Below are positions 20,537 to 24,623 of a stretch of 64,000 bases of DNA, piece after piece; position 1 is the first letter of the stretch; each line of letters opens with the position of its first letter. The notes below the pieces were generated by a model that made no database searches, had not been told where the DNA came from, and worked only from the letters and a program-made list of their open reading frames with translations. The translations under genes were made by a program, and so were the position numbers. This DNA is from Phormidium sp. VAR_61_metabat_6 (GTDB lineage Bacteria; Cyanobacteriota; Cyanobacteriia; Phormidesmidales; Phormidesmidaceae): the NCBI GenBank assembly GCA_031425055.1, contig JANPIO010000270.1, positions 493 to 64,492 on the forward strand. The letters are read 5' to 3'.

Positions 20537-21979
20537 TCACCCATTTACCCAGGTGCCGTGAAAACTGTGGGGCACCACCTCCGGCAGCCCTAGCCGACAG
20601 ATCGGCCCCTTCTTAAGCTCATTCCCTTCATACACCCACAGTTCGCTGCGGTGCTGGGTGCCGTCATAGACCACAGTGAGCACCCAGGGCTGCTGGGGGT
20701 TCGCCGGGTTCGCAACGGCGATCGGTTCAGAAGGGTAGCGGCCCTCCCCAGCATCGGCCACGGTAAGGCCAGTTTTGGGGTCAAAGCGGGCGATCGCCCC
20801 AAACAGCTCATCTACCGGGGTGGACACTGTGCGGTGCACATTCAAATAGGTGGTCGCCGTCTCGTCGTGGCCAAACGCGATCGGAAACTCGCAGTGGCGA
20901 TCGATCAAACACTGCTGGTCGAGAATCTTGCCGGTTTTGGGGTCGATGCGGTACTGCCAGAGTTGGGCATCGGCGGGGGTAGAGGTCTGGCCCGAGGCCA
21001 CTTCTTTGAGGTACTGGTTGGTAGCAAAATCGTTGTAGCGCGCCACATCGAACACGATAGAGCCATCAAAATCGAGGTAGCTGTGGCCAAAGTGCCACTG
21101 ATACCAGGGGTCGGCTTCGCCAAGGGCGATCGCCTCCAGCGTATCGGCATCCACCACAATAATCTGGGTGCCCTGCTGGGGCTGCCACTGCAAGGCATCG
21201 CTAAAGCTAGACAGGCCAAACAGCGCGGGCAAGGGGCTCAGGCGCACGGGCGACACGCAAAACACCAGGTAGCGATCGGCCAACACAAAGTCGTGCAGCA
21301 GCGGAATCCCCGCCAGGGGAATCGTGCCGGTCTTTTCCACGGTTCCGGTGGCGCTACAGCGGTAGAGCTTGAGGGTGGCGTTGCCCCCAGGGATGGTGCC
21401 AAAGCTGAAAATCTCCCCCGTGCGGGGGTGGCGCTTGGGGTGAGCAGTAAAGGTGTCGCTGGCCTGGAGTTCTCCCAGGTTGTCTAAGCCAACGGTCTCT
21501 AGGGTCTCTAGATCGAGGCGGTGGGGCAGCCCCCCTTCCCAGAGGGCCAGCAGTCGATCGGGCAGGGCCAGCACCGAAGTATTGGCGGCATTTTTCACCT
21601 GGGTCTGCCAGTGCTGCCAAAATGGGCCAGGCGGCAGGGTGCCATAACCGCGATAGAGGCTCTTGTCGGCGGCTTCCTCATCCACAAACCCGGCGGAGCG
21701 CACATAGCGGTAGGTGCCTACAGCGCGATCGCCGTCAAAATTTACCCGCAGCACCGCCCCATCGCCGTCGAACCAATGGCTGACTCGGGTGCCGCCGCGC
21801 TCAAACCGGGCGGGGCCGTTGCGGTAGAGGGTGCCCCGCAAACCAGCGGGCACCTGTCCCTCCAGCACGGGGAGAGTCGTAGCGGCGAATTCGGTCGCGG
21901 GCTGGGCGATCGCCCCCGCCCACAGCGCCGCAGTAGGTTCTGCAACGGGTTGCGATCGCGACGGTGCCAAAGGAGCCAT
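20537..21979 (-). CDS. Carotenoid cleavage oxygenase (RPE65/NCED family)
   Basis: LYRNGP, HWFDGDG, FTAHPK, LLHDF, FHFGH-like QFGH region and PHSFHG. Start 21979 or 22024. Confidence 0.9.
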   Translation of the reverse strand: MAPLAPSRSQPVAEPTAALWAGAIAQPATEFAATTLPVLEGQVPAGLRGTLYRNGPARFERGGTRVSHWFDGDGAVLRVNFDGDRAVGTYRYVRSAGFVDEEAADKSLYRGYGTLPPGPFWQHWQTQVKNAANTSVLALPDRLLALWEGGLPHRLDLETLETVGLDNLGELQASDTFTAHPKRHPRTGEIFSFGTIPGGNATLKLYRCSATGTVEKTGTIPLAGIPLLHDFVLADRYLVFCVSPVRLSPLPALFGLSSFSDALQWQPQQGTQIIVVDADTLEAIALGEADPWYQWHFGHSYLDFDGSIVFDVARYNDFATNQYLKEVASGQTSTPADAQLWQYRIDPKTGKILDQQCLIDRHCEFPIAFGHDETATTYLNVHRTVSTPVDELFGAIARFDPKTGLTVADAGEGRYPSEPIAVANPANPQQPWVLTVVYDGTQHRSELWVYEGNELKKGPICRLGLPEVVPHSFHGTWVNG

Positions 21980-22062
21980 AGGTGCAGAGATAAACGTTGC
22001 TTGCTCTATTGTGACCCAGGACACCCAGAAGGGTAGGGCTCACCTCCCACGCCCCATCCCCC

Positions 22063-22854
22063 CTACGACTGACTCTGCATCACCAAATCCCCCGCCGGTA
22101 TTGGCGGAGCGGCAGCCCGCTCAGCCGTGATCAACATCTGCACCGGCGCAGTGCCACAGACCGCATCGGGCAGCACCCACTGATTGGTGTCTGCAGCCGT
22201 GGCCGGGTTAAATTCTCCACAAAATACCGGGTCGCTGTCGGCCAGTGCCCAGAGCCGATACACCTGTTTTTCGTCTAGGGGCGGCAGATCGGTAGTGACG
22301 ATCAGCGCGGTTTGGTCGGCGGGGTTGACCACCAGGCGGGCGTTGGCCTGGGGTTCGGCCTCGGTGCCCGCCAGGGTGTAGAGGCGGTTAGCGGGCTGGC
22401 TAAAGCTGGCCACCACGGCCTCGGTTTGGCGCAGGGCCAGGCGCAGGCGCTGGTTTTCTTGCAGGGTGAAGGCCAGGGCCAGACCCGTGGCGGCCCAGCC
22501 CAGGGCTAGCCCCAGTCGGCCCCAGGGGAAGCGGCGGCGGACGCCTGCGGCAGCGTTTGGTAACTGACTCGGGACGAGTATCTCTCCAGAGATCACATGT
22601 TCAGGTTCGGCGGTAGCGGCAGCGGCCCTAGCGGCAGCCAGGGTGCGATCGCGCAGATCCGGCGGTGGCGCTACGGTTGAAAGCCCCAGAGGCAGACAGT
22701 CCCAGGTGGCTTGTAGGGCCGCCAATTCAGTCGCCACTTCGGGATATTGCTCGAGCCACTGCTCGACCTGGGCAGCTTCTTCAGCGGTAAGGTCGTCGAG
22801 CACATACCCCGCCAGCAGCGATCGCCAATTGTCAGGAAGGGGAAGTGAGGTCAT
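22063..22854 (-). CDS. Anti-sigma factor, RskA-type (membrane-anchored)
   Basis: LLAGYVLDDL, PPPDLRDR, one TM segment (LGLALGWAATGLALAF) and C-terminal LPPL...YRLWA. Confidence 0.88.
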   Translation of the reverse strand: MTSLPLPDNWRSLLAGYVLDDLTAEEAAQVEQWLEQYPEVATELAALQATWDCLPLGLSTVAPPPDLRDRTLAAARAAAATAEPEHVISGEILVPSQLPNAAAGVRRRFPWGRLGLALGWAATGLALAFTLQENQRLRLALRQTEAVVASFSQPANRLYTLAGTEAEPQANARLVVNPADQTALIVTTDLPPLDEKQVYRLWALADSDPVFCGEFNPATAADTNQWVLPDAVCGTAPVQMLITAERAAAPPIPAGDLVMQSQS

Positions 22855-22910
22855 CGGTGGGCGGGAGAGGGTGAAGGGTGAGGGAGTGAGGGGTAGTAGG
22901 GAGTAGGGGG

Positions 22911-23498
22911 TTAGCTTTGGTGGGGCTGGAGCAGACCGCGCAGGCGGAGGAGACCTTGGCGACAGCGAGATTTGACGGTGCCTAGGGGAATGCCAAGCTG
23001 GGCGGAGATCTCGGCCTGGGTGAATCCTTGAAAGTAGGCGATTTCTAGCACTTCGCGTTCGGTGGCGGGGAGCTGGGCGAGGGCGGCGCGCAGGTGCTCA
23101 TGCTGTTCGTGCTGGGTGGCGTAGTCAACCGGGTTGGGCGATCGCGCCGAGGCTTGACTAATGCGCTGAAACCGCTGCAAAATTACCGCTCGCCCGCTGT
23201 TGATCCGCAGGCGATCGAGGGCGCGCGAGCGGGTGTTGGTAGCCAGGTAGCTGCCCACGCTGCCCCGCTCGGCGTCGTACTGCCGCCGCTGCCAAAAATT
23301 GACGAACACCTCTTGGGTGAGGTCTTCGGCCTCGGCGGAGTTAGACAGCATTTTGAGGGCCAGGGTATAGACCATCGGCGAATAGCGATCGTAGAGGGTG
23401 GCGAGGGCGGCAGTATCACCGGCCCACAGACGGGTAACCAGGTCGCGATCGCTCACTGGAGAAGACATCTGGGGGTCGGGGGGCGGCAATGGGGGCAT
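22911..23498 (-). CDS. ECF sigma-70 factor (SigK/SigI-like)
   Basis: LYDRY, AEDLTQEVF, RSRALDRLR and LGIPLGTVKSR. Directly upstream of the anti-sigma gene. Confidence 0.93.
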   Translation of the reverse strand: MPPLPPPDPQMSSPVSDRDLVTRLWAGDTAALATLYDRYSPMVYTLALKMLSNSAEAEDLTQEVFVNFWQRRQYDAERGSVGSYLATNTRSRALDRLRINSGRAVILQRFQRISQASARSPNPVDYATQHEQHEHLRAALAQLPATEREVLEIAYFQGFTQAEISAQLGIPLGTVKSRCRQGLLRLRGLLQPHQS

Positions 23499-23513
23499 TA
23501 ACTACACATCAGT

Positions 23514-23542
23514 AATACGACTCAGGCCACCGTTATGGATGG
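23514..23542 (-). promoter_or_regulatory. Putative ECF-dependent autoregulatory promoter of the sigma/anti-sigma operon
   Basis: Minus strand CCATCC-N16-TCGTATT, ending 15 bp before the sigma ATG. Near-identical to the opposite-strand motif at 23611. Confidence 0.7.
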
Positions 23543-23610
23543 CCGGGGGAGAAACAGATATGGAGACAGAGTGGATGGGCTGAACTCAAATGTCGAGTTA
23601 GAACCACTCG

Positions 23611-23638
23611 TCATCCACAGACCACAGCTAGTCGTATT
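23611..23638 (+). promoter_or_regulatory. Putative ECF-dependent promoter of the ferritin-like gene
   Basis: TCATCC-N15-TCGTATT. Shares CATCCA and AGTCGTATT with the divergent copy. Confidence 0.7.
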
Positions 23639-23695
23639 GTGGCGGGTCTGAGAGCAATTACGCTTGCCCACGACATTAGCGCAAAGGATACTGCA

Positions 23696-24397
23696 ATGAA
23701 TCACGATTTTATGTCTGATGATCTAGATTCCCCCAGAGCAGGGGTTTCTCGCCGTCGGGTGATGGTGGGCGGCACAATCGCGGGTTTAGTTGGCACCCTC
23801 GGCTTCTCTGCCTTAACCAAGAGCGCAGCCCAAGCCGAGAGCCGCAGTGCGCAGAACCGCAACAGAGGGGGAGCCCGCGGCAGAGCCGCCGCTAACGACG
23901 CTGCAATTCTCAATGGGGCGCTCTTCTACGAGCATCAGGCGATCTGGGCCTACGGGGCCGCTGCCCGAGGGCTCAGCGACACCGATGTAGGCAAAGCCGT
24001 GCTGGCGATCGCCCTGGCCAACCAGGCCGACCACATGGCCCACCGCGATCTACTCATTCAAGTTGTGAGCAACCTGGGCGGCACCCCCGTCATGGCCGAA
24101 GACAGCTACGACCTGTCGGCCTACCTAGAGCGGGGCGACGGCGGCCTCGACTCTGATGTCAACATCGCTAAGCTGGCCCTGGCCCTCGAAACCGATGCCG
24201 CGATCGCCTACGCGGACGAGGTCGCCCGCCTCAAAACCCCCGAGCTAATCACTGCCGGGGCCTCGATCGCCGCCGCTGAAGCAGCCCACGCCACCACCAT
24301 TCGCGCCGCCTTCATTTCCCTGGGGGTCGAGATTCCTTTTGTGCCCGCCCCCTTCGTCAGCGCCGACACCCGCGAACAGTGGGTGCTCAAGGTGTGA
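23696..24397 (+). CDS. Tat-exported ferritin-like domain protein
   Basis: Twin-arginine SRRRVMV plus a hydrophobic stretch. Four-helix motifs LFYEHQA, NQADH, ALETDAA and AAAEAAHA. AAGGA SD-like sequence before the ATG at 23696. Confidence 0.82.
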   Translation: MNHDFMSDDLDSPRAGVSRRRVMVGGTIAGLVGTLGFSALTKSAAQAESRSAQNRNRGGARGRAAANDAAILNGALFYEHQAIWAYGAAARGLSDTDVGKAVLAIALANQADHMAHRDLLIQVVSNLGGTPVMAEDSYDLSAYLERGDGGLDSDVNIAKLALALETDAAIAYADEVARLKTPELITAGASIAAAEAAHATTIRAAFISLGVEIPFVPAPFVSADTREQWVLKV

Positions 24398-24578: not shown

Positions 24579-24605
24579 GCCCGAGGCGAGGCCTCGGGCT
24601 TTTTT
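24579..24605 (+). terminator. Rho-independent terminator
   Basis: GCCCGAGGC-GAG-GCCTCGGGC followed by TTTTTT. Confidence 0.75.
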
Positions 24606-24623
24606 GGCAAGTTTTTTTAATGA

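Follow-up and report, generated by a model that had tools for sequence, protein, structure and literature searches.

A 64,000-nucleotide (nt) stretch of the genome of the cyanobacterium Phormidium sp. VAR_61_metabat_6 (contig JANPIO010000270.1), hereafter the window, encodes a sigma factor of the extracytoplasmic function (ECF) type and an anti-sigma factor, divergently oriented from a gene for a ferritin-like protein predicted to be exported by the twin-arginine translocation (Tat) system. The gap between the two transcription units carries one bipartite motif on each strand, and the locus is most likely a signalling module in which an ECF sigma/anti-sigma pair regulates its own expression and the regulon is closed, with two promoters. 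The initial annotation had taken the two motifs for a pair of divergent promoters serving a self-contained ECF module, and this interpretation is supported, at the level of sequence, by footprinting, conservation at orthologous loci, a closed two-site regulon and co-inheritance of the sigma and target genes. The module is real, widely conserved and uncharacterised, and its architecture is an ordinary ECF one. Its features, in window coordinates, are as follows.

22911-23498, minus strand: ECF sigma factor of 195 amino acids (aa) with sigma-2 and sigma-4 domains, NCBIfam PRK12519, SigK-like; the ATG at 23498 is conserved
22063-22854, minus strand: single-pass anti-sigma factor, 263 aa; a sigma-binding domain at the N-terminus is followed by a membrane helix (residues ~113-133) and then by the periplasmic RskA_C domain
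23696-24397, plus strand: Tat-exported ferritin-like di-metal protein, 233 aa, PF13668 Ferritin_2/DUF4439, with twin-arginine signal SRRRVMVGG...AQA and Shine-Dalgarno sequence AAAGGA at 23683-23688
23514-23541, minus strand: predicted ECF-type promoter of the sigma/anti-sigma operon; -35 CATCCA at 23541-23536, extended -10 AGTCGTATT at 23522-23514, start predicted at ~23505-23509
23612-23638, plus strand: predicted ECF-type promoter of the ferritin-like gene; -35 CATCCA at 23612-23617, extended -10 AGTCGTATT at 23630-23638, start predicted at ~23643-23647
24579-24609, plus strand: intrinsic terminator-like hairpin of 9 bp (8 G-C) with a T-run, closing a monocistronic ferritin-like transcript

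A bipartite motif facing each gene of the divergent pair

The gap from the ATG of the sigma gene (23498, minus strand) to that of the ferritin-like gene (23696, plus strand) is 197 bp long. The minus strand reads CATCCATAACGGTGGCCTGAGTCGTATT at 23541-23514 and the plus strand CATCCACAGACCACAGCTAGTCGTATT at 23612-23638, and the two are identical at 15 positions, CATCCA and AGTCGTATT, so that the same bipartite motif is present on both strands as originally described. The blocks themselves stand but the spacing of 15-16 bp first given for them does not, as the blocks so written are separated by 12-13 nt. Measured from CATCC to CGTA, the spacer is 16 nt on the plus strand (target side) and 17 nt on the minus strand (sigma side), and 16-17 nt is ordinary ECF geometry. 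In the window, CATCCA-N12/13-AGTCGTATT is matched twice, once on each strand of the gap, and 100 dinucleotide-preserving shuffles contain no match. A scan of the whole assembly (4.87 Mb in 439 contigs), which the initial annotation had proposed as a check, returned only the same two matches. An Rfam search of the region matched no family, and a riboswitch or small RNA reading was dropped for this reason.

Conservation was evaluated first within Nodosilinea, the Genome Taxonomy Database (GTDB) genus of the source, in which divergent sigma/ferritin-like pairs are found repeatedly. Culturable strains that have the module include Nodosilinea nodulosa PCC 7104 and Leptolyngbya sp. PCC 6406. With one mismatch tolerated per box, the motif is present on the target side of 23 of 23 genus loci and on the sigma side of all 22 loci that have the sigma flank; it precedes most sigma orthologues as well, consistent with a predicted autoregulatory promoter. 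When 15 intergenic regions from Nodosilinea are aligned, the conserved sequences are the four boxes, a TTAGCGC-AAAGGA element before the ATG of the target gene and the start codons. The remainder, spacers included, varies and carries indels, with the spacer lengths of 16 nt (target) and 17 nt (sigma) kept across nearly the whole genus.

Across the genome collection scanned, genes for relatives of the ferritin-like protein were located at 235 places, and the best 80 of these, from many cyanobacterial families, were fetched; 56 loci outside Nodosilinea have enough flank for inspection of the sense strand. Of the 56, 42 have ATCC-N15-17-CGTA[TA] no more than 350 bp upstream of that gene, at a density of 2.28 per kb, ~125 times the 0.018 per kb seen in the rest of these loci. 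The motif is therefore conserved upstream of orthologues throughout the genus and at most loci beyond it, conservation on which the initial annotation had made its proposal depend. The spacer in these more distant sites is almost always 16 nt, and positions left free in the search pattern are also biased, with A at +4 in 39 of 43 sites, A at +5 in 31 and T after CGTA in 36, giving a class-wide consensus of about (A/C)AATCCAA-N14-CGTAT. The motif persists upstream of the ferritin-like gene where there is no sigma gene nearby.

These comparisons bear on two other explanations of the paired motif. Over 9 nt, the two -10 blocks are perfect inverted copies of each other, AATACGACT / AGTCGTATT, lying 107 nt apart, and the inverted 15-nt matches might be the half-sites of an operator for a DNA-binding regulator rather than promoters. 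This is highly improbable: a separation of ~100 bp exceeds the reach of a dimer operator, spacing within the bipartite element is fixed and its spacer sequence free, and the element matches an ECF promoter consensus, with no other recognisable promoter, and specifically none of the sigma-70 type, found in the 197-bp gap. Where the sigma and target genes are unlinked, each keeps a single copy of the motif oriented toward its own gene, an arrangement that favours a promoter over a palindromic operator and led to rejection of the latter. That the similarity is due to chance, or is a non-functional remnant of a local duplication, deserves almost no credence and is effectively refuted by the comparative data, as the boxes are kept across the genus and the class while their surroundings diverge with indels, and the shuffled sequences contain no match.

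The reading of the two motifs as ECF promoters is strengthened by their rarity. In a scan of the source genome with a weight matrix built from the genus sites, the sigma-side and target-side sites scored 35.8 and 34.9 bits, respectively; the next-best site scored 20.9 bits, below the maximum of 21.7 bits obtained with the reversed genome as control, and the runner-up sites fall within open reading frames (ORFs), for example in recA. A strict pattern matched 21 times in ten further genus genomes of 5.3-6.9 Mb, and 18 of these matches are module promoters; the reversed-pattern control gave 7. Neither scan detected further regulon members above control. With no additional convincing sites, the regulon appears closed and to consist of the sigma/anti-sigma pair and one Tat-exported PF13668/DUF4439 protein. 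The sigma and ferritin-like genes are also inherited together. Among 37 genomes of the genus, with at least 69% identity required for an orthologous sigma, both genes are present in 21 and both are missing from 14, leaving 2 that are discordant (Fisher p = 3.5e-8). In one discordant genome a gene lies at a contig end, and the assembly of the other is 86% complete.

A third CCATCC-like box is present between the two promoters, at 23570-23578, where the minus strand reads CCCATCCAC. Only the closest relatives retain it, and no CGTA box lies at a promoter's distance from it. Separately, a contig labelled as a metagenome-assembled genome (MAG) of the Actinomycetota (L108, JBLNEP010000256.1) encodes a ferritin-like protein 64% identical to the cyanobacterial one, and is probably a mis-binned cyanobacterial contig.

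Proteins encoded by the module

The genes had been assigned correctly from the sequence as those of an ECF sigma factor, an RskA_C anti-sigma factor, an RPE65-family oxygenase and a Tat-exported ferritin-like protein. The sigma factor matches PF04542 over residues 35-98 and PF04545/PF08281 over residues 136-187, with PF07638 also matching, and is without region 1 or region 3, which fits the definition of an ECF (group 4) sigma factor. It scores 230.3 bits against NCBIfam PRK12519 (NF009172; 229.6 bits in the genome-level search), above the cut-off of 222. Its further classification as a SigK/SigI-type factor holds in part. The best match among solved structures is SigK of Mycobacterium tuberculosis (4NQW, E 3.8e-23), and the protein is SigK-like in this sense, but its score against the NCBIfam SigK model (NF007228) is 136.2 bits, well under the cut-off of 226, and both redox cysteines of SigK are absent. 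C133 and C183 of SigK are replaced by V (in TEREVLEIAYF) and L (in LRGLL), and the sole cysteine that the protein does possess aligns with a methionine of SigK. The ATG at 23498 is positioned 15 nt past the -10 box (23496-23514), and the predicted leader of the sigma transcript is consequently only ~8-12 nt, near-leaderless and with no Shine-Dalgarno sequence.

The anti-sigma gene begins 56 nt past the sigma stop codon on the same strand. Its product matches PF10099 (RskA_C) over residues 119-246 with 45.5 bits (cut-off 29.4) and the equivalog NF052375 with 108 bits (cut-off 100), and an N-terminal anti-sigma motif, W..L.AGY.L.DL..EE, is conserved in the alignment. An N-terminal domain, a single membrane helix and an extracytoplasmic RskA_C domain together make up the architecture of an RskA-type protein; a sequence search of the Protein Data Bank (PDB) with the anti-sigma returned no match. 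Two periplasmic cysteines in the RskA_C domain are conserved across the group to which the sigma belongs and are lost together at two loci (L119 and L120), which suggests that they form a disulfide, and one may speculate that the pair senses redox state.

The ferritin-like target scores 73.3 bits against PF13668 (cut-off 24.7) and 41.3 bits against PF14530 (cut-off 28.8), and its metal ligands, E79, H113, H116, E165, D167, E195 and H198, are invariant in the alignment. An AlphaFold2 model folds as a four-helix bundle whose predicted local distance difference test (pLDDT) score is above 85 in the core. A PDB sequence search with the target gave no match, and only the fold search was informative, with top Foldseek matches to M. 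tuberculosis Rv2844 (2IB0, a DUF4439 protein) and the tardigrade protein RvFeMP-1 (8W9K, 8KCE). The N-terminus, SRRRVMVGGTIAGLVGTLGFSALT...AQA, has a twin-arginine motif, a hydrophobic region and an AxA site, as expected of a predicted Tat substrate, and SRR (TRR in one case) is present in all 11 aligned orthologues for which an N-terminus is available. Translation from the GTG at 23639 was discounted because this codon abuts the -10 box; conserved instead are the ATG at 23696 and its Shine-Dalgarno sequence, AAAGGA. In the 5' leader of the target gene, TTAGCGC-AAAGGA (23676-23688) is almost invariant across the genus. This conservation exceeds what a Shine-Dalgarno sequence needs and the element may participate in translational control.

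Proteins of the PF13668 family have been tied to desiccation tolerance in plants, tardigrades and Deinococcus, and two are phosphatases (PMC11616004). In a preprint, Tat-exported mycobacterial DUF4439 proteins are proposed to activate a DD-carboxypeptidase. The target shares PF13668/DUF4439 and the conserved di-metal ligands with the PF13668 group of ferritin-like metabolite phosphatases (RvFeMP-1 from a tardigrade, D. radiodurans DRB0118 and PCC13-62 from plants) and with mycobacterial Rv2843/Rv2844, the fold with Rv2844 and RvFeMP-1, and the prediction of export through the Tat system with the secreted or Tat-exported PCC13-62, tardigrade proteins and Rv2843. It is, however, only 21-26% identical to the PF13668/DUF4439 proteins with solved structures, and its link to phosphatases is one of homology. 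In contrast to the target, for which a dedicated sigma is proposed here, the characterised PF13668/DUF4439 members have no dedicated sigma factor reported.

A paralogous sigma factor and the relation to known ECF systems

The genome encodes a second PRK12519-type sigma factor (C100:9516-10100, within locus L150 at C100:8744-10917) that is 42% identical to the module sigma. It has its own RskA-like anti-sigma, which scores 63 bits against NF052375, short of the cut-off, and a gene for a 219-aa exported protein, CHRD-like by eye, is located upstream of the pair. In a tree of 41 sigma factors, the paralogue falls in a strongly supported group of 12 (100/98), none of which is encoded beside a ferritin-like gene; 10 of the 12 ferritin-adjacent sigmas, that of the module included, belong to the other PRK12519-type part of the tree. 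In that part, an ATCC-CGTAT motif is present upstream of 8 of 9 sigma genes that adjoin a ferritin-like gene and 7 of 11 that do not, and in the paralogue group 3 of 12 loci have any such motif within 1.2 kb.

Several observations weigh against the module sigma as the dedicated reader of two exclusive sites. A promoter-like site, TGCATCCA-N15-CGTAC, that resembles the module promoters precedes the CHRD-like gene at the paralogue locus. Two genomes (G070 and G072) retain the motif upstream of the target gene, yet only a sigma of the paralogue group was seen in them. Fourteen of the 56 loci outside the genus, including four from Nostoc (L095, L100, L102 and L106), are without the strict motif and, in the two Nostoc genomes that hold L095 and L100, no PRK12519-type sigma was found at E <= 1e-30; the wiring of the target gene may differ in Nostocales. 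The weight matrix was trained on sites that had themselves been selected by pattern, and weak members of the regulon could therefore have been missed.

The first two of these observations suggest that the family probably shares a core specificity, with cross-talk possible, and they allow a reading in which the paralogous PRK12519-type sigma is the main reader of the two ECF promoters, or both sigmas read them, so that the adjacent sigma would not be the specific regulator. The -35 and -10 cores and their spacing are indeed common to the module and the paralogue operon, and the motif is family-wide and matches the published ECF18 consensus described below. We nevertheless regard this reading as unlikely, since the adjacent sigma and the target gene have been gained and lost together within the genus, orthologues of the module sigma bear a CGTAT-type motif upstream that is infrequent at loci of the paralogue group, and the extended -10 differs, being GTCGTATT for the module and GCGTACC or CCGTACT for the paralogue in Nodosilinea. 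The paralogue promoter also falls below the weight-matrix threshold. Regulation of both sites by the module sigma is the reading retained here.

In two loci of Elainella saxicola (L142 and L143, genomes G084 and G083), an ECF sigma of a third and more distant group is encoded on the strand of the ferritin-like gene and immediately downstream of it. This sigma has 36-41% identity, falls below the PRK12519 cut-off and shares the ATCC-N16-CGTA promoter ahead of the ferritin-like gene. With this arrangement, the target gene is tied to two different sigma lineages in different cyanobacteria.

The initial annotation had taken the paired promoters to define the recognition motif of the sigma factor. 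In the form in which the ECF Hub consensus for ECF18 is quoted in PMC13492112, the -35 is GCATCC and the -10 is CGTAT, and CATCC-N16/17-CGTAT on both strands of the gap conforms to it. The motif itself is accordingly not new and defines no new specificity, and a version of it, TGCATCCA-N15-CGTAC, is also carried by the paralogue operon. ECF18, ECF19 and ECF214 form a clade with RskA-like anti-sigmas (PMC7826278). Members of ECF18, for example RpoP/RspA of Cupriavidus metallidurans, share the -35 and -10 cores with the module and likewise pair with an RskA-like anti-sigma. They have been described mainly from Proteobacteria, whereas the host of the module is a cyanobacterium and its extended -10 is (A)GTCGTATT.

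A parallel in gene organization is the mpt83-sigK-rskA cassette, in which a sigma factor, an RskA anti-sigma and an adjacent secreted target have a sigma-binding site that is conserved across taxa (PMC7509140). The module likewise combines an ECF sigma, a single-pass RskA_C anti-sigma and a very small regulon with an adjacent secreted target. The mycobacterial targets, however, are the FAS1-domain proteins Mpt70/83, and the target here is a ferritin-like PF13668 protein with no FAS1 match; the module sigma differs from SigK in its score against the SigK model, in its lack of the redox cysteines and in its cyanobacterial host. In cyanobacteria, the SigG/SapG system of Nostoc punctiforme and Synechococcus PCC 7002, compared here by its description, also consists of an ECF sigma co-transcribed with a membrane anti-sigma, and a role in envelope stress has been implicated. 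The window genome differs in having two paralogous pairs, only one of which, the module pair, is linked to a ferritin-like gene; homologues of the sigma bear generic names throughout. No relevant literature came up in a search for a connection between an ECF sigma and a ferritin-like or PF13668 protein in cyanobacteria. Both the recognition motif and the architecture are of known kinds, and the cyanobacterial pair with a PF13668 target is an association not found in the literature.

A proposed circuit and the neighbouring oxygenase gene

The motifs, their conservation, the closed regulon, the co-inheritance and the protein families were computed directly; from these we infer a circuit in which the sigma is cognate to both promoters. 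At rest, the cytoplasmic N-terminal domain of the single-pass RskA-type anti-sigma would hold the sigma at the membrane. A periplasmic cue acting on the RskA_C domain, where the conserved cysteine pair lies, would lead to inactivation of the anti-sigma, probably by regulated proteolysis by analogy with other single-pass anti-sigmas. The freed sigma would then guide RNA polymerase to the two divergent (C/A)ATCCA-N-(G)TCGTAT(T) promoters, with 16-17 nt between ATCC and CGTA, and initiate transcription at the predicted start sites. One of these promoters would re-express the sigma and anti-sigma, providing feedback, with read-through into the oxygenase gene perhaps occurring in one subclade. The other would express a single Tat-exported PF13668/DUF4439 di-metal protein, presumably with a biochemical role in the periplasm. 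The most extensive version of this scheme, a cyanobacteria-wide single-output ECF circuit dedicated to a Tat-exported PF13668 protein, with an anti-sigma that senses the periplasmic state by way of a conserved disulfide and with a duplicated sister sigma, its promoter core nearly identical, insulated by the extended -10, is put forward tentatively, as a possibility of some substance that we would not yet favour over its simpler forms.

If correct, that version would provide the first known regulatory pathway for PF13668 proteins, known as 'desiccation-related' proteins and ferritin-like phosphatases, and in terrestrial cyanobacteria would connect these proteins with a signal of envelope, desiccation or oxidative origin. 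The module supplies a promoter consensus open to testing, (A/C)ATCCA-N-CGTAT, and a single output gene for a sigma/anti-sigma pair that is uncharacterised, and the inducer of the sigma would be a handle on PF13668/DUF4439 function. As a closed ECF circuit with two promoters, it is also a candidate for use as an orthogonal switch in the synthetic biology of cyanobacteria, and two paralogous pairs in one genome are a natural case in which to ask how close ECF sigmas avoid cross-talk.

Beyond the anti-sigma gene is one further gene that the initial annotation had connected to the module:

20537-22024, minus strand: carotenoid-cleavage-type oxygenase (RPE65 family; PF03055, E 8e-117)

No terminator was found between the anti-sigma and oxygenase genes, and the oxygenase is possibly a read-through passenger of the sigma operon. 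It adjoins the anti-sigma gene only in the closest relatives (L031-L035 and L045), and it was rejected as a core member of the module because this adjacency is confined to the closest subclade. Carotenoid cleavage, which had been suggested as a possible output of the module, is not supported for the same reason: in other Nodosilinea (L037, L046, L049 and L053), the gene downstream of the anti-sigma encodes an FTR1-type iron permease with an REGVE motif. The genome under study has its FTR1 permease gene on another contig (C358:176-1093), with the oxygenase gene occupying its place, and this exchange suggests that the closest subclade has undergone a local rearrangement.

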